IMG/VR virus record: IMGVR_UViG_2667528074_000003
Coordinates: 1 to 23,401 of that record
DNA from: a virus
Taxonomy: Duplodnaviria; Heunggongvirae; Uroviricota; Caudoviricetes
Direction: 5' to 3' (one strand)
Length of the DNA stretch: 23,401 nt
Part shown: in pieces, positions 1-22,468 of the stretch
How positions within the stretch are numbered: the first letter of the stretch is position 1
Layout: each line of letters begins with the position of its first letter
The notes under the pieces: model-generated
Told to the model about the DNA's origin: nothing
What the model saw: only the letters and a program-made list of their open reading frames with translations
The model's database searches: none
Program-made: the position numbers and the translations under genes

Positions 1-615
1 ATGTTAGTTAGTAAAAGCAACGGATTTAACGCTAGCGCAGTTTTGGGTAGTGGAAGTTATAATGAAAATAAATCTTCTAAACACATGGAGCTACTAGCTC
101 ATAGTATTTTAAAATTAATTTGTAAGGAAGCTGCATCAGAGACGTATCGCGGTGCTCTTGAAACTTTACAAAAAATGATGTCTGAATGTATATATCATGA
201 AGGCAACGCCTTTGTCATTATGGGAGTTGGAGAACAATTAAAACGTATTAAATATGAAGTTGGTGAAAATAACTTAAAGGTATTCAACGTACACTTTAAT
301 AATAATCACGAGTTAGTTAGTTCTGGTGAGCCTGACGTAATATGTTTAAGCAAGCAGGTCTGGGAAAATCTTCTCATTAAACTAAAGCTGGAAAACAATG
401 AAAATGTGTTTTCTGAAACTAAAAAATTATCGAATAAAAATAATGACGATCAGTTTTTTGAATGCGCTAAAAGAAATGAACAGAACCTTTTCGATAATAT
501 AAGAAAAAGTGATTTTCATGTTGGTTTACTTAAGCCAAGTAGTACGCGTAGTGTTATTTTAGAAACGCCGCCAAATGTCTGTATGGAATCACGTAATTCA
601 TATGAAAAAAAATAG
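1..615 (+). CDS. hypothetical protein, low-GC; possibly the 5' part of a longer gene split at an A8 tract
   Basis: 204-codon ORF in AT-rich DNA starting at the window edge (true start may lie upstream); ends TAG 613-615 directly after an A8 run (605-612). No recognisable domain. Confidence 0.35.
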   Translation: MLVSKSNGFNASAVLGSGSYNENKSSKHMELLAHSILKLICKEAASETYRGALETLQKMMSECIYHEGNAFVIMGVGEQLKRIKYEVGENNLKVFNVHFNNNHELVSSGEPDVICLSKQVWENLLIKLKLENNENVFSETKKLSNKNNDDQFFECAKRNEQNLFDNIRKSDFHVGLLKPSSTRSVILETPPNVCMESRNSYEKK

Positions 616-629
616 ATGAGATTTCATCT

Positions 630-1373
630 TTGTCAGAGTCAAAGGAACACCCCATAGATATTCAAGAAAAAAAAGATGCGTTTGTGAATGAGTTCAAGGG
701 GATATTATTTGATAAAAATGGAAGGTCTTCAGAGTTTCTACTTAATTTTTATGAATGTTGCTATGAGTTTTTACCAAGAGCGCAGCCTCAGGATAAAATC
801 GAAAGCTATAATTCAGCACTGCAAGCTTTCTCCATCTTTTGTTCATCTACGTTGATACATAATAATATAGGCTTTGATTTCAAATTATTTCCAGAAGTCA
901 AACTGTGTGGGGAAAATCTTGAAACGGTATTCAAATATAAAAATGGCGATGATGTCCGGGAGATAGCCAAAATTAACATTACTCTCCAAAAAGAAGAGGA
1001 TGGTTTATATAATTTAGGTGGATTGGATTTTAAGGGATGCTTCTTTTCTGGACAGAACTTCAGTAACTATGATATTCAATATGTGAACTGGGGAACGTCA
1101 TTGTTTGATCTTGATACTCCGTGTATTTTTAATGCGCCTGCTTACAACAAGAGTAATGAAAAATCATTAAAACCTGTGAGCGAAAACGGTTTAAGTGGAG
1201 TCTTGACTGATCGTAATAATAAAATAAAACTCATCACGGGCGTGGCACCATTCGATGATATTTTATTTATGGATGATGACTTTGATGATAGTTCCTCTGA
1301 GGATGATCCCGTTGAGAATAGTCCTGTTGTGACTAGTCCCGTTGTATCAAGTTCTAAAAGCAGTTTTCAATGA
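630..1373 (+). CDS. hypothetical protein, low-GC, acidic Ser/Asp-rich C-terminus; possibly the 3' part of a frameshifted gene
   Basis: 247-codon ORF with TTG start, no in-frame ATG near the 5' end and no Shine-Dalgarno; one extra A in the upstream A8 tract would fuse it in frame to ORF 1-615. Segment LDFKGCFFSGQNFSNYDIQYVNWG is loosely pentapeptide-repeat-like. Confidence 0.4.
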   Translation: MSESKEHPIDIQEKKDAFVNEFKGILFDKNGRSSEFLLNFYECCYEFLPRAQPQDKIESYNSALQAFSIFCSSTLIHNNIGFDFKLFPEVKLCGENLETVFKYKNGDDVREIAKINITLQKEEDGLYNLGGLDFKGCFFSGQNFSNYDIQYVNWGTSLFDLDTPCIFNAPAYNKSNEKSLKPVSENGLSGVLTDRNNKIKLITGVAPFDDILFMDDDFDDSSSEDDPVENSPVVTSPVVSSSKSSFQ

Positions 1374-1758
1374 TTAATAAATGGCTATTTTTACAAAGAG
1401 ATAATAACGTAGATTGAAACAATATGTATTATTGATTGATTAAACGGGATTATTTTTTACACTACAACCATTTTGCTGCCACTACCAAAGAAAAAGGGGC
1501 TACGCTTTCACGTAACCCCTTGATTTATTTGTTGAGCTGGCGGTGTCTGAATTGGTGCTGTAATTGGTTGAAATATTTATTCTAATGTCTGGTTCAACTT
1601 TCCTTAGCTGCCTGAAAGTTTTTTTGATCTTACCCATCAATAATAGGGTTACGGTACACCACGCCTGACTGATGAACTGCGTGCTCAGGGTTACCTCTTC
1701 AACGTAAAACCGTGGCAGGAGGTCCGGACTGAAAAAACTGCTCAGGACATTATCGGCG

Positions 1759-2016
1759 GTGGACGCACGGGTAGTCTGTAAACCGAACCGACTGGGGCGC
1801 AGTATGTGGCATCTTGTCGTGCTGTTGGAGGAGCTGTGCAAACGTGGTATTAACTTTCGTGCTCTGGCCCAATCTATATTTGCCCAACAATGGGGGGACG
1901 AATGCTGTAAAAGTAAAAGAATCTGCGATCTCAAAGTTATTGTGTTATTTTTATGTGAGCAGAAGATATTCATCAGAAACGATTATGTAAATCATTTTAT
2001 TTTGCCGACGGCCTGA
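1759..2016 (+). pseudogene. remnant of a Pin/Hin-type serine recombinase (DNA invertase), internal fragment only
   Basis: Translation VVCKPNRLGRSMWHLVVLLEELCKRGINFRALAQSIF matches the conserved central block of serine invertases as I recall it (Pin: VVWKLDRLGRSMKHL...ELRERGINFRSLTDSID). No N-terminal catalytic-Ser region or C-terminal HTH; the ORF tail is unrelated. Confidence 0.5.
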
Positions 2017-2285
2017 TTGTCGAAAGAAAAGAATACCCCCGTATTCCCTGAATAGATTGACTTTTTTATCCAACCATACTTCAGCGCACTGCGTTTAAAA
2101 AATGCTTCTTTCTTATGTGGAATATCATCATTTCATCATGATGTCTTTGATGAGCGGTGAACACAATACACTTGCGCTGTCTCTTCAGGATGAATCCCCT
2201 GGTCTGGTGCCTGTGGGCTGATGTTGCAGCAGAGCTAAGGTCGCTTAAACGCTACTCAGTATTCACTTTTCAGAGGATGAAATTT

Positions 2286-5200
2286 ATGAACAGGACCAGT
2301 CCCCATTATTGTCGCCGCTCAGTACTTTCCTTATTGATATCTGCCTTGATATATGCCCCGCCTGGGATGACGGCCTTCACTCCTGATGTTATTGGTGTGG
2401 TAAACGATGAGACTGTAGATGGCAGCCAAAGAGTAGATGAACGAGGTACAACAAATAACACTCATATTATCAACCATGGCCAGCAGAATGTTCATGGCGG
2501 GGTATCTAATGGAAGTCTTATTGAATCGGGTGGATATCAAGATGTAGGAAGTCATAACAATTTTGTGGGGCAGGCTAATAATACAACCATTAACGGAGGA
2601 AGACAGACAATTCATGACGGGGGCATTTCCACCGGTACGATAATCGACAGTGGCAATCAGGACGTTTATACAGGTGGTATCAGCAATGGAACGACAATTA
2701 AGGGTGGTAATTCACACATAAGTGGGGGGACTGCGAATGGAACCATCATTGATGGTGGAGGGCAGAAAGTAACAACTCAGGGGCATGTTGATGGTACAAC
2801 GATAAATAAGTCCGGTTATCAGGACATCACGCAAGGAAGTATTGCAACGAACACAATCATAAATGGTGGACGACAGTATGTTGAACAGAGCACAGTAGGA
2901 ACAACCACCATTAAAAATGGCGGTGAGCAAAGAGTATATGAAAGCCATGCGCTGGACACGACGATTGAAGGTGGAACTCAGTCTCTGAATAATAAGTCAA
3001 CGGCAAAAATACTCAGATCTATTCTGGTGGTACGCAAATTGTTGATTACACCAGCTCCTCGGATGTTATTGAAGTTTATTCCGGTGGCGTGCTTGATGTT
3101 AGTGGTGGTACGGCAACAAATGTTACCCAGCACGATGGTGCAATTTTAAAAACAAACACTAACGGTACGACGGTGAGCGGTACGAATAGTGAAGGTGCAT
3201 TCTCCATCCACAATCACGTGGCAGACAATGTGTTGCTGGAAAACGGTGGTCATTTAGACATAAACGCATATGGTTCGGCAAACAAGACGATTATTAAAGA
3301 TAAAGGAACAATGTCAGTTTTAACGAATGCTAAAGCTGATGCGACCCGAATAGATAACGGCGGGGTAATGGATGTTACCGGAAACGCGACCAATACCATA
3401 ATCAATGGTGGTACACAGAATATTAATAATCATGGTATTGCCACGGGTACCAATATCAACGGCGGAACGCAAAATATCAAGAGCGGCGGGAAAGCTGACA
3501 CGACAATTATATCCTCCGGGAGCCGGCAGGTTGTTGAGAAAGATGGTACGGCAACTGGCAGCAATATTAGCGCCGGAGGCTCGCTGATTGTCTATACCGG
3601 TGGTATTGCACATGGGGTTAACCAGGAGACGGGCAGTGCTTTAGTTGCCAACACGGGCGCAGGGACTGATATTGAAGGATACAACAAGCTCTCTCACTTC
3701 ACTATTACCGGAGGGGAGGCTAATTATGTTGTGCTGGAAAATACCGGCGAACTGACGGTAGTGGCTAAAACCTCGGCGAAAAATACTACCGTTGATGCTG
3801 GCGGTAAGCTGATTGTCCAGAAGGAGGCTAAAACAGATACCACCAGACTTAATAATGGTGGCGTTCTGGAGGTTCAGGACGGTGGTGAGGCTAAGCATGT
3901 TGAGCAACAATCCGGCGGCGCATTAATTGCTTCCACAACTTCCGGAACCCTTATCGAAGGAACCAACAGTTATGGTGATGCTTTCTACATCAGGAATTCA
4001 GAAGCTAAAAATGTAGTGCTGGAAAACGCTGGCTCATTAACAGTCGTCACTGGTTCCCGGGCAGTTGATACGATTATTAATGCCAACGGCAAAATGGATG
4101 TTTATGGAAAAGATGTTGGCACTGTACTCAATAGTGCTGGCACCCAAACAATATATGCCAGTGCCACTTCTGATAAAGCAAATATCAAAGGTGGCAAGCA
4201 AACGGTATATGGATTAGCCACTGAGGCAAATATCGAAAGTGGTGAACAAATTGTTGATGGTGGGTCAACAGAGAAAACACACATCAATGGTGGCACGCAA
4301 ACCGTTCAGAATTATGGTAAGGCAATCAATACCGATATCGTCTCTGGCCTACAACAAATTATGGCAAACGGGACAGCGGAAGGTTCCATTATTAATGGGT
4401 GTTCACAGGTAGTTAATGAGGGCGGTCTGGCTGAAAACTCGGTGCTTAATGACGGCGGCACACTCGATGTGCGGGAGAAAGGCAGCGCAACGGGGATACA
4501 GCAGAGTAGCCAGGACGCTTTGGTTGCAACCACCAGGGCGACGCGGGTCACAGGAACACGCGCGGATGGCGTCGCGTTCAGCATCGAGCAGGGTGCGGCG
4601 AACAATATCCTGCTGGCAAATGGCGGCGTGTTAACCATGGAGTCAGACACCTCTTCTGACAAAACACAGGTCAATACGGGCGGACGGGAGATCGTCAAAA
4701 CAAAAGCCACTGCGACAGGCACGACGCTCACCGGCGGCGAACAAATCGTCGAGGGGGTGGCGAATGAGACAACGATTAACGACGGCGGAATACAAACAGT
4801 TTCAGCTAACGGAGAGGCAATAAAAACAAAGATCAATGAAGGCGGTACGCTGACAGTTAACGATAATGGCAAAGCGACAGATATCGTCCAGAACAGCGGT
4901 GCCGCTCTCCAGACGAGCACGGCTAACGGTATTGAAATCAGCGGTACTCACCAGTACGGCACTTTTTCCATTTCCGGCAATTTAGCGACCAATATGTTGC
5001 TGGAAAATGGCGGTAATTTATTGGTATTAGCAGGTACCGAAGCTCGCGACTCCACGGTTGGCAGCGGTGGAGCCGCCAACGGCAGTTATCGCAGCAACGG
5101 GCTGGGCGGTCACATTGAAACCGGGATGCGATTTACCGATGGTAACTGGAACCTGACGCCGTATGCATCGTTAACGGGGGTTCACCGCTGATAACCCTGA

Positions 5201-5546
5201 ATATCATTTATCCAATGGCATGGAATCGAAATCAGTCGATACCCGCAGTTTATATCGTGAACTGGGTGCAACGCTGAGTTACAACATGCGTCTGGGGAAC
5301 GGTATGGAAGTTGAGCCGTGGCTGAAGGCGGCTGTGCGCAAAGAATTTGTCGATGATAACCGGGTGAAAGTGAATAGTGACGGTAATTTCGTCAATGATT
5401 TGTCGGGCAGACGTGGAATATACCAGGCAGGTATTAAAGCCTCATTCAGCAGTACGTTAAGCGGGCATCTTGGGGTGGGGTATAGCCATGGTGCCGGTGT
5501 GGAATCCCCGTGGAACGGGGTAGCTGGTGTGAACTGGTCGTTCTGA
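2286..5546 (+). pseudogene. AIDA-type autotransporter adhesin gene, disrupted by three homopolymer frameshifts and with a shortened beta-barrel domain
   Basis: RBS GAGGA then ATG 2286; signal-peptide-like N-terminus MNRTSPHYCRRSVLSLLISALIYAPPGMTA; long passenger of ~19-aa repeats (GGxQxVxxGGxAxxTxI); autotransporter C-terminus ending VAGVNWSF. Frame changes at A5 (3005-3009), and G5 (5176-5180); the barrel-like part is only ~150 aa. Confidence 0.6.
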
Positions 5547-5560
5547 CCATCAACGAAAAA

Positions 5561-5576
5561 GCCCACATCTGTGGGC
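5561..5576. terminator. hairpin after the autotransporter stop (GCCCACA..TGTGGGC) flanked by A5 and T3
   Basis: Inverted repeat 5561-5567/5570-5576, 15 nt after stop 5544-5546; short T tract, so terminator function is uncertain. Confidence 0.4.
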
Positions 5577-5706
5577 TTTCATGTCACCAGGAGCCGCGGC
5601 TCCTTTGCGTATCCTTTTATGTCTCTTCACCGTCTGGTCGGTGTCCTGCTGAGACTGCTAACTTCCTGTTTTTATTGGTGTTGTCCTTATACCGTCCAAT
5701 CATGAT

Positions 5707-5733
5707 TGGTGGAGCTGGCGGGAGTTGAACCCG
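5707..5733 (-). other. prophage attachment-site core: 27-nt copy of the 3' end of tmRNA (ssrA)
   Basis: Reverse complement reads CGGGTTCAACTCCCGCCAGCTCCACCA, which is a T-arm plus acceptor-3' strand plus CCA and matches the ssrA 3' terminus as I remember it. Not a complete RNA gene: the sequence beyond 5734 is unrelated. Integrase stop lies 133 bp away. Confidence 0.6.
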
Positions 5734-5865
5734 TGATCGGAATTCACATAGTTTATTGAATATGAACGATTTATTTTTTCACGCAAGGAATTATGTGCAT
5801 TTTACGTACATATTGTTGTCCCTGTAACGTCCTGATTCTGTACAATATTCTGAAATATTTTACCG

Positions 5866-7038
5866 TTACCGGGCTGCAGAAATCGCCGTTTTTCCATCGT
5901 ATTCTGCAAGGTAAGAGCCGTAATGTCTGAACAGCATTTCCGGTCCTTTGTGCCCCATCTGACCAGCCAGCCAGAACAGGTTAACGCCCTGGCTAATGTG
6001 CCGAGTGGCGAACGTATGGCGTGTCTGGTACGGATTGCGATAACGTACACCAGCCTTTTTAAGGGTCGGTACCCAGGCTTTTTTGCGGATCGCATCTGCG
6101 TTTGCCCAGGGAGCTCGAGTTTTCGGATCGCTGAATATGAAGTCGCTTTTTAGCGCCGTGTAGGGCTTTTGTGCCTGAAGAGCTACCAGCGCTTCGTTGT
6201 TCAGTTGTACTTTGCGAGTACCGGCTTTTGTTTTGGTACTTTTGATTACCCCGACTACGCTTGCAGTCTGGACATGTGCTGTGTTGCCGATGAAGTCTAT
6301 ATCTGTCCAGCGCAACGCGCACAATTCCGAGCTGCGTAGTCCGGTATTAAAGGCGAAACGAAACAGATTTTGCCATTCCGGGTAATGACAGGCGTCATAG
6401 ATTGCTGCTGTCTCTGCTGGCGTAAAAGGATCGACCTCGTAATCATCACTGCCTGGTGTGTTGTCCAATACGTGATACCGGCTGGCGCTGACCAGCGTGA
6501 CAGGATTTATTGTTAACAAACCATCGGTCACCGCTTCATCTATGGCGCTGCGCAGAAATGAAAGATTATTGCGGATCGTTTTCAGTTTTGTTTTTCTGCT
6601 GGCGATCCAGTTTTTGAGTACTGCAGGTGTCAGTTCTGATACATGAAATTTATGCAGTGCTGACAGTGCAGACAGGCATTTTTCATACCCTTTAATTGTC
6701 GATGGCGACAGGTTACGGTTCTGGCAGATAGTCAGGTATTCATCCAGGTAAGATTTTATATTTTTGTTTTTTTTCACTCCCCCGAACAGCTCCAGCTTTT
6801 GGGAGTTGGGGAAGTATTTTGCATATTCGAAGGTACCACCGATAATCTGATTTTTTATTTCTCCCAGCAGACGCTCGGCATACTTCACACCGCGCGCGTT
6901 TACTTCCATTCTGGAGAGGGGCTCCCGACACAGAACCCCTTTATATGTAAAAGTGATAACCAGAGTGCTACCAGTTTTATGCTGGCGAATAGTTACTCCT
7001 CTAGGGAGAGATAATGATCCTTGTTCTTTCTTGCCCAT
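5866..7038 (-). CDS. int: tyrosine site-specific integrase (lambda Int family)
   Basis: 390 aa; C-terminal catalytic region with RHTFATRHISQG and LAGQMGHKGPEMLFRHYGSY (conserved His/Arg and catalytic Tyr); GGAG RBS; adjacent to att core and transcribed toward it. Confidence 0.9.
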   Translation of the reverse strand: MGKKEQGSLSLPRGVTIRQHKTGSTLVITFTYKGVLCREPLSRMEVNARGVKYAERLLGEIKNQIIGGTFEYAKYFPNSQKLELFGGVKKNKNIKSYLDEYLTICQNRNLSPSTIKGYEKCLSALSALHKFHVSELTPAVLKNWIASRKTKLKTIRNNLSFLRSAIDEAVTDGLLTINPVTLVSASRYHVLDNTPGSDDYEVDPFTPAETAAIYDACHYPEWQNLFRFAFNTGLRSSELCALRWTDIDFIGNTAHVQTASVVGVIKSTKTKAGTRKVQLNNEALVALQAQKPYTALKSDFIFSDPKTRAPWANADAIRKKAWVPTLKKAGVRYRNPYQTRHTFATRHISQGVNLFWLAGQMGHKGPEMLFRHYGSYLAEYDGKTAISAAR

Positions 7039-7202
7039 TTTGAAATCTCCATTAAGTCGACCCAGCGTTCTTTAACTCCGTCGACTTTTAATACATGTAC
7101 CCCTTCTTTCCATATTCCTCTTTGTATCCGTTTGTTAACGGCATCAACCGTTTCTCCCGCGTCGCGGCAGTAGGTTGATATAGGTACGCAATCCAGCCCC
7201 AT
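6993..7202 (-). CDS. xis: excisionase-like small DNA-binding protein
   Basis: 69 aa, basic, directly upstream of and overlapping int by 46 nt; strong RBS GAGGTGA 5 nt before ATG 7202. Assignment by position and size, not by clear motif. Confidence 0.55.
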   Translation of the reverse strand: MGLDCVPISTYCRDAGETVDAVNKRIQRGIWKEGVHVLKVDGVKERWVDLMEISKWARKNKDHYLSLEE

Positions 7203-7210
7203 ACATCACC

Positions 7211-7357
7211 TCACACAACATTTAGCCCACGGCAGTGGCACCACACTTCAAACATTCGCTTCACAATTTCACGACAATAGAAACCGTCAACATCTCGCGT
7301 CAGGTCATAGCTATTGCCGTAACGCTGGCGTACCCATAGCTCAAACGCTTTATTCAT
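7211..7357 (-). CDS. hypothetical small protein (48 aa)
   Basis: Not in the ORF track (<60 aa). ATG 7357 preceded by AAGGAAG; its stop TGA sits 8 nt before the xis start; translation MNKAFELWVRQRYGNSYDLTRDVDGFYCREIVKRMFEVWCHCRGLNVV. Confidence 0.35.
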   Translation of the reverse strand: MNKAFELWVRQRYGNSYDLTRDVDGFYCREIVKRMFEVWCHCRGLNVV

Positions 7358-7360
7358 TCT

Positions 7361-7603
7361 TTACTTCCTTTTCATGGCACGTAATTTTTTCAGATGAGCT
7401 TCCTGTTCTGTTTCTGCCAGAATTTGTCGGTATTCCTGGTGATCGATCCGTTCAAACGATTCATTAAAATCGTTCATTTTTACCGATTGTGTTTGCCCGT
7501 CCATTCTTCTGTACAACACGGTGTTGTTTATGTAGCGAACAATTTTTACCGGGTAACCGGCACTGTCGGTATACAGTTGTCCTTGATTAATCAGAGCGAA
7601 CAT
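7361..7603 (-). CDS. hypothetical protein (80 aa)
   Basis: Internal start of the 121-codon track ORF chosen because AGGAGA lies 6 nt upstream of ATG 7603; tightly packed with the flanking genes. Confidence 0.5.
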   Translation of the reverse strand: MFALINQGQLYTDSAGYPVKIVRYINNTVLYRRMDGQTQSVKMNDFNESFERIDHQEYRQILAETEQEAHLKKLRAMKRK

Positions 7604-14362: not shown

Positions 14363-14671
14363 TTACACGAAGCGGATCTGGAGTTTTTTTCCTGTTGCGC
14401 GGGCAAATTTTTTCAGTGTGGAAAATGATGGTCCACTGACACCTGACGCCAGATTACTTTCCATTCTGCTGATGACAGTTGCTTTGGTTCCCATACGCTC
14501 AGCGATCTCAGCTTGGGTTAAACCAGCTTCTTTACGTGCTGCCAGCATTTCATCAAGCAACGCAAATTCGTCGGCGATGGCGTCGTATTCTGCTTTAAAA
14601 GCTGGATCCTCCATCCATTTATCAGCCATTTCATCATGTGTAATGGTTGGCGGATTACGTTTACCAGTCAT
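14363..14671 (-). CDS. HigA-like antitoxin (XRE HTH)
   Basis: 102 aa with HTH GLTQAEIAERMGTKATVISRMESN; immediately downstream of and overlapping (11 nt) the toxin gene, the toxin-first order typical of HigBA modules. Confidence 0.8.
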   Translation of the reverse strand: MTGKRNPPTITHDEMADKWMEDPAFKAEYDAIADEFALLDEMLAARKEAGLTQAEIAERMGTKATVISRMESNLASGVSGPSFSTLKKFARATGKKLQIRFV

Positions 14672-14990
14672 GCTTTACCTCCTTCATTCTGGTTTCAGCT
14701 TTTTGGCGTTCGGCTGGTGGGGTTTTCTGGGTCTTCTTGATGAAACTATGCAGCATGATGATGCGTTTTCCTGCCAGGGTGCAGTAAAAGACGCGTGCGA
14801 TGCCATCACTACCTTTAATCCGAAGCTCGAAAAGCCCGTTACCGAAAGCACTGGTATGAGGTTCTCCGAGATTGCTGCCGTATACCTTCATGCGTTCAAC
14901 AAGATGCTGGTATCGGGCACGCATACTCAATGGAAGCTGGTCGACCTCCAGCCTGACCTCTTCACTGTAGTATTCGATAGTGTAGTTCAT
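14661..14990 (-). CDS. HigB/RelE-superfamily toxin (phage gp49-like mRNA interferase family)
   Basis: 109 aa; characteristic motifs NGLFELRIKGSDGIARVFYC and IMLHSFIKKTQKTP. Confidence 0.8.
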   Translation of the reverse strand: MNYTIEYYSEEVRLEVDQLPLSMRARYQHLVERMKVYGSNLGEPHTSAFGNGLFELRIKGSDGIARVFYCTLAGKRIIMLHSFIKKTQKTPPAERQKAETRMKEVKHDW

Positions 14991-20051: not shown

Positions 20052-20294
20052 ATGACTTTTACCCCTGAACAATTACGTAAACAGGCACAGGAAATGTTGC
20101 GACAAGCGGAACAACTGGAAAAAACAGGTGTAACAAAAGATACCATTCGTCGGGATATGGTTCCCGCGCTCAGAGAATTGATGCAGGCGAAACACCGTGC
20201 ACAAAAAGCGGTGGATGAGCTGGTGGATTGTGTGGCAGAGCTGGAAACCAAAGTTGGAAAGTTTGAAAAACTGGTGCATGAGGTGCTGCGCTGA
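20052..20294 (+). CDS. hypothetical small helical protein (80 aa)
   Basis: ATG 20052 (track TTG at 20037 overlaps the helicase stop); stop overlaps the ATG of the next gene; weak RBS. Confidence 0.45.
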
Positions 20295-20677
20295 TGCGTG
20301 ATATTCAGATGGTTCTTGAGCGTTGGGGAGCGTGGGTGGCAAATAATCATGAGGATGTTACCTGGTCATCGATTGCAGCCGGATTCAAGGGGCTTATTCC
20401 TTCAAAGGTTAAATCGCGACCGCAATGTTGTGACGATGATGCGATGGTTATTTGTGGTTGCATGGCTCGTCTGAAAAAGAGCAACAATGACTTGCATGAT
20501 TTGCTGGTGGATTATTACGTTTGGGGCATGACGTTTATGAGGCTGGCGCAGAAGCATAATTGCTCTGATGGATATATCGGGAAAAGGTTACAGAAAGCAG
20601 AGGGAATAATCGAAGGTATGTTAATGGCATTAGACATTTGCTTAGAGATGGATATTGATGTTACTAAGCTTAATTAA
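20294..20677 (+). CDS. late-gene antiterminator Q-like protein (phage 82 / DLP12 QuuD-like)
   Basis: 127 aa at the canonical position after the replication genes and before the late region; N-terminus [14 protein letters not shown] and Cys cluster ([12 protein letters not shown]) match my recollection of DLP12 QuuD; followed by a hairpin-rich leader. Confidence 0.6.
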
Positions 20678-20857: not shown

Positions 20858-21961
20858 TTAGAACTGGTATACCATACCTACAGCAACGATATCGTCAGTG
20901 TTTACACCAAGAGCTTTAGTAAAGTCATTTTTGTCAAGCAGGTTGATTTTGTAATCAACGAAGGTAGACATATTTTTGTTGAAATAATAAGTTGCGCCAA
21001 CATCAACATATTTGACTAAATCCTGGTCACCAAAAATGCCAAGATCTTTACCTTTTGATTGCAGATAAGCAACAGACGGACGCAGACCGAAATCGAACTG
21101 ATATTGTGCAACAGCTTCGAAGTTTTGTGCTTTATTAGCCACAAAGTAATCTGCGAATTTAGTCATATTCTGGGTTTCTGAATAGGTTGTTGCCAGATAA
21201 ACGTTGTTTGCGTCGTATTTCAGACCTGCAGCCCAGACTTCTGCATTTTCGCCGGAAGCAAATACTCCTGGGAGAAGTTTACCCAATTTGACTTGAGTGT
21301 CGGTACGATCAGATTTCGCATACGTTGCACCAATGCCGAAACCTTCGTATTCATAGGTCGCAGAGAAACCAAAACCATCGCCATTGCCTTTGGTGTAGTT
21401 ATCTAAGCTACTACGATCATGATTATTCTTACCCTGGTACTGTGCAGCAAAATTCAGACCATCAACCAGACCAAAGAAGTCGTTGTTACGATAAGTTGCA
21501 ACACCAGTGGTACGACCAGTCATGAATACATCTGTTTGGGTCCAGGTATCTCCACCGAATTCTGGCAGGACGTCAGTCCATGCACCGATATCGTATGCTA
21601 CACCGTAGTTACGACCGTAATCGACGGAGCCGTAGTCACCGAATTTAAGCCCTGCAAATGCAAGACGGGTTTTATCTTTGGCTGCTCCCTGTTCTTCAGT
21701 ACGGTTTCCTTTGAATTCATATTCCCACTGACCGAAACCAGTCAGTTGATCGTTGATCTGAGTTTCGCCTTTGAAACCCAGACGAGCATAAGTTGTGTCG
21801 CCATCATTTGCATCGTTAGAGGAGAAGTAGTGCTTAGCATTAACTTTTCCGTACAGATCCAACTTGTTGCTGTCTTTATTATAAATCTCTGCTGCCTGAG
21901 CAGACATCGCCATCAGTACTGATGCAGCCACAGCAGAAATTGCCACCGTTAATTTTTTCAT
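20858..21961 (-). CDS. outer-membrane general porin of the OmpC/OmpF/PhoE family (phage-borne NmpC/Lc-like)
   Basis: 367 aa; signal peptide [23 protein letters not shown] then AEIYNKD...; near-colinear with OmpC as I recall it ([38 protein letters not shown], terminal MVYQF); opposite orientation to the phage operons; AT-rich upstream region. Confidence 0.9.
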
Positions 21962-22468
21962 CACGAACCCTTTTTTTTGAACTATTTTTAAAAAATGATG
22001 TCACTGCGCGATAAATATTCATCTAATCAATGTGGTTATTTCAAGAGTCAAGTTTAATTTAGTGATTGATAATATGATCAAGATCTCATTTATGCGCGTT
22101 GGTATAATTTGTTGATATTTTTGTGTAATGCGGAATTTAATTAATGAAATACATTATTTACTCATTTTTCATTGAAAAATAACAATGATGTATTTGATGT
22201 AATATGTGTTATTCGTATGTTTTGTTTTGTTATATTGCATTAACATTTGAGTGGCGTATTTGTGGTTTACGTACGTAAAAATTCAATTATGATGTTAAGA
22301 GTGGTTGCTTCGACTCCTTCCTTAAAACCGCCGTCGGGCTGTTTTTTGTACCCGAAAAACGGCACAGGACGTTAAACGTGCTGGTGGTTGCGAATACTGG
22401 TCTTTCAGCTTGCTGGCTTTTTCGACAAGAGTTATTGGTATGTCACGTTAACCAGAAAGGAAAAAGAC

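Follow-up and report, generated by a model that had tools for sequence, protein, structure and literature searches.

Evidence for the integrase-proximal attR of a lambda-like prophage in the 3' end of ssrA

Results

The stretch of DNA analysed here (the window, 23,401 nt) begins in bacterial chromosome and runs into a prophage, and the features on either side of the boundary are collected in Table 1. Positions 1-5721 are collinear with the ypjC-ypjB-pinH-ypjA segment of Escherichia coli K-12 at 96-97% identity. The ypjA of the window encodes AIDA repeats and an autotransporter beta-domain; it is shorter than its K-12 counterpart by ~1.3 kb, with a deletion joint near 5061-5073, and is otherwise collinear with it. 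Split into three ORFs, ypjA/ehaD is a pseudogene here, and it is found in the same state in 2013C-3264, where it is annotated as a pseudogene. The ORFs of sister contigs that are equivalent to the pinH remnant gave a weak Resolvase match. Measured from ssrA, the hairpin beyond ypjA is placed where phage P' arms end in their terminator hairpins. Rfam matches to isrB and rsmX at this terminator were below threshold and chance-like, and the B' arm had no match in Rfam at permissive thresholds.

Table 1. Features at and around the junction, in window coordinates
Feature	Position	Strand	Basis or remark
pinH invertase remnant	1708-1947	+	Collinearity with the annotated K-12 pinH pseudogene
ypjA/ehaD autotransporter, disrupted	2157-5546	+	ORFs 2157-3149, 3089-5191 and 5220-5546
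Hairpin, T-runs on both strands, terminator-like	5558-5579	.	Directly after the ypjA stop codon
B' arm	5590-5706	-	Downstream of intact ssrA in empty E. coli sites; resembles a phiNP-type P' arm
GGATACGCAAAGGAGCCGCGGCTCC	5590-5614		Part of the putative B' arm relic
ATCATGATTGG			B'-side sequence joined to ssrA in the empty-site junction
att core TGGTGGAGCTGGCGGGAGTTGAACCCG	5707-5733	-	Displaced ssrA 3' fragment, which makes the junction an attR
T-arm dyad CGGG-TTCAACT-CCCG	5719-5733	-	T-loop of 7 nt, 5723-5729
P arm of the attachment site	5734-5865	-	Separates int from the core
Candidate arm-type Int sites, 11-nt spacing	5793-5834	-	Sense: CAGGACGTTAC, AGGGACAACAA, tandem ATGTACGT-AAA-ATGCACAT
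int, 390-aa tyrosine integrase with arm-binding domain	5866-7038	-	Pfam, PHROG, structures
xis, 69-aa excisionase (recombination directionality factor)	6993-7202	-	PHROG 2917, fold

In K-12, the ypjC-ypjB-pinH-ypjA segment starts directly beyond the attR of the CP4-57 island, and the order there is a degenerate ssrA fragment, psaA (TTCAGACTCCGCCAGCCCACCA), followed by ATCATGATTGGACGG... and then by ypjA. An earlier reading of the sequence, made without database searches, had likened the flank to the distal end of CP4-57. The two flanks are indeed orthologous at the identity given above, while in K-12 the CP4-57 attR separates the island from ypjA and pinH, which lie just beyond it. The same reading had the phage occupying or sharing that ssrA hotspot. 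CP4-57 itself is absent from the window, where flank and phage meet with nothing in between. Another degenerate fragment resembling the ssrA 3' end, TTCAGACACCGCCAGCTCAACAA, was observed at 1529-1605 on the minus strand. It is a CP4-57-type attR relic preceded by ~55 nt that resemble the K-12 CP4-57 distal end (77% over 77 nt), and its place between ypjB and the pin remnant leaves old att relics on both sides of the pinH-ypjA segment.

The reverse complement of the att core matches the terminal 27 nt of K-12 ssrA at 27 of 27 positions. The core takes in all but the first of the five bases in the T-stem 5' strand, followed by the T-loop, the T-stem 3' strand, the acceptor 3' strand and CCA; identity with ssrA ends at that first base, where the window has A and ssrA has G. 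The Rfam tmRNA model likewise places the 27-mer as T-arm plus acceptor 3' strand (E = 7e-4, for a fragment), so that the alignment and the model both agree with the sequence-only reading of a tmRNA 3' copy. The 27-mer is present as a single copy in the window, and 100 shuffles yielded 0 matches with up to 3 mismatches permitted. ARAGORN found no whole tmRNA gene in the window, and ssrA is therefore represented there by its 3' fragment only. That the 27-mer marks the boundary between flank and prophage, as had been proposed, also fits the homology on its two sides: similarity to K-12 and to unoccupied sites reaches through the core, while similarity to the prophage of C5, the closest prophage, begins at window position 5706. 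The direct repeat around the related prophages of 2013C-3264 and C5 is identical to the window core.

Both int and xis point toward the core, start with ATG and have GGAG/GAGG just before each start. The int stop codon starts 132 nt beyond the core end and the two genes overlap by 46 nt, in line with the distance of 133 bp and the overlap reported earlier, and the proposed gene identities are backed by the agreement of Pfam, PHROG 1, PHROG 2917, structure alignments and fold matches. Pfam domains in Int are Arm-DNA-bind_2 (PF12167, residues 12-79, 9e-19), a SAM-like core-binding domain and Phage_integrase (1e-18). The protein was assigned to the PHROG 1 integrases (2.5e-64), and it aligns with the Tn1549 and lambda Int structures over the catalytic motifs. 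Its catalytic positions are R235, K269, Y337, R340, H363 and Y373, all but Y337 (five of six) carrying the canonical residue. Y337 (codon ~6028-6030, in PYQTRHT) replaces the first His of the HxxR motif, a position that is His in most tyrosine recombinases. The equivalent residue is also Tyr in phiNP, an active phage, and in phiES15 and LMessi, so this is a family trait and not a defect. An identical integrase protein was found in 211 index blocks of a public assembly collection.

Xis belongs to the PHROG 2917 excisionases (1e-40) and had no Pfam or NCBIfam match; its homologues are called excisionase by many sources, and one of them has PF06806. A PDB sequence search with Xis returned only 2kvv, at a non-significant level. 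An AlphaFold model was built from 30 homologues (pLDDT 82.7), and its best solved matches were recombination directionality factors (RDFs): 2kvv (probability 1.0, TM 0.67), P2 Cox, RdfS and Pukovnik Xis. The Foldseek E-values were weak (at least 0.01), as expected at 69 residues. On this model, Xis is a small winged-helix RDF encoded beside int, with a predicted role in directionality. The xis/int overlap is also kept in phiES15 and phiNP. A promoter and terminator scan of 5400-7600 gave a match count no greater than in shuffled sequence.

The P arm and core are contiguous in the intact attP of phage LMessi, and they are kept in C5 beside a different flank. The candidate Int sites in this arm carry the motifs GGAC, GGAC, GTAC and GCAC at intervals of 11 nt, and their tandem is also found in the P' arms of LMessi, 2013C-3264, phiES15 and CP-1639. 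In phiNP, both arms carry an altered version, CGTAAA-GAGCCGC, changed in step. Repeats that co-vary between P and P' in this way would be the pattern expected of arm-type protein sites, and we infer binding from it. Between the window and phiNP, Int identity is 61% in the arm-binding domain, 65% in the core-binding domain and 70% in the catalytic domain, so the arm-binding domain is slightly the most diverged. Phasing of GNAC at 10-11 nt was significant in the E. coli arm (p = 0.002) and in Arsenophonus (p < 0.002), with p = 0.09-0.47 in the other arms; given such mixed statistics across arms, it is suggestive.

An attB query of 320 nt was assembled from the last 160 nt of ssrA and the 160 nt left of the core. 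It was matched at 100% over its full 320 nt in many genomes, and at least 80% of it was covered in one place in 2528 of 5426 complete E. coli genomes (~47%). An unoccupied attB therefore exists and is common. In assembly GCA_035784165.1 (JALKPB010000020.1, 11173-12015), glaH/csiD comes within ~850 nt after an identical int gene; the whole ypjA-ygaQ segment beside the att site is thus missing, and a deletion next to the junction is suggested.

The window matches GenBank contig LIQA01000002.1 (380,721 nt) of assembly GCA_001413995.1 at 100% identity. Its right end (23401) lies 2 nt from the end of that contig and inside the prophage, and the remaining phage is on other contigs. The far end, where the earlier reading had expected the intact ssrA, was seen in both of the complete relatives examined, 2013C-3264 and C5. 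An intact ssrA lies ~48 kb away at the other prophage end in 2013C-3264, where the direct repeat is exactly 27 bp, and ~48 kb from the core in C5, in the orientation predicted from the fragment. The int of both relatives is ~97-98% identical to that of the window; for 2013C-3264 the value is 98%, and 97-99% per domain (protein), and the C5 prophage, as the closest to that of the window, reaches 97.1%. The same junction was found in 19 complete genomes. In C5, the same P arm and core abut a CP4-57-type arm, which in K-12 is found after ssrA. Homology stops exactly at the core edge and a CP4-57-type arm lies beyond it, so C5 holds a tandem array with a CP4-57-like island, and this extra island is on the distal (ypjA) side, not between phage and ssrA.

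Toward the right end of the window, a porin gene and then C5-collinear sequence come after a Q antiterminator gene (20294-20677), and the window stops ~2.7 kb past Q. No stx gene is visible within the window. In C5, Q and the porin are followed by a methyltransferase, a tRNA and lysis genes, with no stx. The porin gene, just downstream of Q at 20858-21964 on the minus strand, encodes a 368-aa OmpC-like protein; its counterparts in related prophages carry the annotation 'porin OmpC', which makes a phage-borne cargo gene the probable reading. Two overlapping ORFs were also observed in the early region (14363-14990, minus strand), encoding 109 aa (Gp49/RelE-ParE type) and 102 aa (HTH), and their C5 counterparts are annotated as a type II toxin-antitoxin pair.

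The 117-nt stretch between the core and the ypjA terminator was compared with known phage arms. Against the phiNP P' arm, the identity was 81% (118/145, z ~30), rising to ~90% over 117 nt, through GGAGCCGCGGCTCC, and the stretch includes the phiNP-type tandem repeat GGATACGCAAAGGAGCCGCGG. Identity to LMessi-type arms was 65-68%, and no relation to the CP4-57 P' arm was found (z = 0.8). A scan of one genome per species gave 34 loci in which the ssrA 3' end is followed by an arm of this type. When reference arms were added, 36 distinct arms could be aligned free of gaps over ~110 nt, and in most of them a terminator hairpin closes the arm at an equal distance. Phage genes (tail-fibre, J, antirepressor, gtrA) come after arms like the E. 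coli flank in Photorhabdus, Providencia and Arsenophonus, so this is a phage arm type. In E. coli (ypjA) and Trabulsiella (ars operon), non-phage genes come after it, which points to a relic of a former phiNP-type prophage. Judged by this similarity and context, 5590-5706 in E. coli is best read as the putative relic of an earlier phiNP-type prophage P' arm.

Two other accounts of the same stretch were rejected. A host-resident ssrA trailer copied by phages, with similarity falling with host distance, was ruled out, as the copies in Photorhabdus, Providencia and Arsenophonus are prophage attL sites. A conserved trailer RNA hairpin (CACCGACCAGACGGTG vs CACTGACCAGACAGTG) was set aside, as the motif lies ~11 nt apart between arm classes and does not form one column set.

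Discussion

We consider it very likely that the locus is the int-proximal attR, consisting of P arm, 27-bp core and B' arm, of a lambda-like prophage in the 3' end of ssrA. It is the order of P arm, core and B' arm in the ssrA orientation that makes the junction an attR. The phage attP and ssrA would have recombined inside the 27-bp identity block, with strand exchange most likely in the 7-nt T-loop and the dyad serving as inverted core-type Int sites. The T-loop falls within the identity block of each of the three phages compared, phiNP (25 nt), phiES15 (26 nt) and the window phage (27 nt), which points to a crossover there, and on this comparison the T-loop is our best guess. The phage copy of the 3' end would complete ssrA at the far junction, and the original bacterial 3' end would have been displaced to the int-side junction, beside ypjA. 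A heterobivalent Int would act with its catalytic and core-binding domains on the core sites and with its N-terminal domain on the phased arm sites, while Xis, encoded just upstream of int, would direct the reverse (excision) reaction. We infer this mechanism, and with it the crossover and the binding sites, from the lambda paradigm together with the anatomy of the locus; this copy may still be active.

Several features of the module recall lambda: a heterobivalent Int, a small winged-helix Xis overlapping int, repeats in both arms, and int and xis closing a leftward early operon and pointing toward att. Unlike in lambda, the phage targets an RNA gene and replaces its 3' end, the sequence similarity to lambda Int is weak (E ~1e-4), and Xis is of a different sequence family. 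Integration sublocations at this gene are said to have been classified by Williams in 2003 in 'Traffic at the tmRNA gene'.

Among sequenced phages, the closest integrases, at 87-89%, are those of Escherichia phage LMessi and Cronobacter phage phiES15, together with phi467 and the PhiR12 series. LMessi (Int 87.7%) is a free phage in which the P arm, an identical 27-bp core and the P' arm stand as one attP; its attP arms are ~79% identical to those of the window, and the rest of its genome differs. In phiES15 (Int 87.8%), a 26-nt attP is annotated and the same 46-nt xis/int overlap is found, whereas the identity block is 26 nt, two extra genes lie between int and attP, and the remaining genome is different. 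The Stx prophage CP-1639, inserted at ssrA, was reportedly treated by Creuzburg et al. in 2005. Like the window prophage, CP-1639 (AJ304858) is lambda-like and lies in ssrA, with a homologous P' arm beside ssrA, but its distal end adjoins a remnant integrative element with an intA fragment, where that of the window adjoins ypjA. The Stx1a prophage of 2013C-3264 is lambda-like and shares its int, its ypjA junction and the sequence of its 27-bp repeats with the window. ssrA is among the listed insertion sites of Stx phages, first described for CP-1639 (PMC8065619).

Integration of phiNP at the 25-bp ssrA 3' end has been shown experimentally in E. coli K-12 (PMC6456863), and its 25-mer corresponds to the first 25 nt of the window 27-mer. 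In this Citrobacter phage (OR565852), xis overlaps int as in the window, and both Int and Xis are homologous to those described here. It differs in the identity of its proteins (Int 67.6% overall, Xis 62%), in its arm repeats, which are of the GAGCCGC type against the ATGCAC type of the window, and in an ATPase gene between int and attP. It also has myovirus morphology (PMC6456863), whereas the window prophage is lambda-like. As phiNP, phiES15 and CP-1639 are published, the junction type is already documented.

CP4-57 in K-12 shares with the window its target gene and its distal chromosomal flank, but it carries a P4-type integrase beside the intact ssrA, whereas the int of the window is at the end with the displaced fragment. 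The window Int aligns with CP4-57 IntA at 28% over 78 aa only and is unrelated beyond the catalytic box, and no CP4-57-type arm follows the core in the window. The element is therefore not a relative of CP4-57, and the target alone is in common.

Other explanations of the junction were weighed against the attR reading. The prophage could be defective, truncated or in a tandem array whose far end is not ssrA, leaving att, int and xis stranded with no precise excision. Tandem arrays are known at ssrA, C5 itself joining the phage type of the window to a CP4-57-like island, but that island is on the ypjA side only, and ssrA stands at the far end in both complete relatives. Old att relics are common at the ssrA site and the distal end of CP-1639 adjoins a remnant integrative element, yet the window phage adjoins the ancestral flank directly. 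The contig break falls within the window prophage; the part that can be seen has full-length int and xis with good start contexts and a perfectly matched core. We regard this explanation as unlikely, with a small but real chance of being correct.

It is very improbable that the 27-mer is a leftover attR of an earlier CP4-57-like island and that the phage carrying int and xis lies at another site and is merely adjacent. A degenerate ssrA fragment does stand at the same position beside the same flank in K-12 (psaA), but that relic is degenerate where the window copy is perfect. The P arm is moreover joined to the same core in the LMessi attP and, beside a different flank, in C5, the identity breaks exactly at the core edges, and the window Int has only its short match to IntA. 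A chance match to ssrA, which is refuted by the shuffles and would have had to fall in exactly the surroundings of an att site, has next to no probability. The int-proximal attR is thus our preferred reading, and it describes a textbook prophage junction of a documented kind, correct but already known.

The 117 bp that follow ssrA in empty E. coli sites are usually taken as the native attB flank. A further-reaching proposal is that this flank is a phiNP-type relic P' arm with phased repeats, such that every empty E. coli site is attL-like and the window junction is attP-like; we consider this proposal improbable in its full form, with a slight chance of being right. The window junction would then be composed of the current P arm, the core and an old P' arm. 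If phiNP-type integrases still bind the relic, it could, speculatively, bias integration, promote tandem arrays or allow Xis-independent rearrangements.

Conclusions

One prophage end in a draft genome is delimited, and its integration module and target are named. This can be used for annotation, for the design of excision PCR and for prophage typing, as Stx1a phages use this integrase and site in other strains. The sole mildly new point is the leftover phage arm, which appears as a seemingly native ssrA flank and shows reuse of the hotspot. The ssrA hotspot has clearly been used many times.
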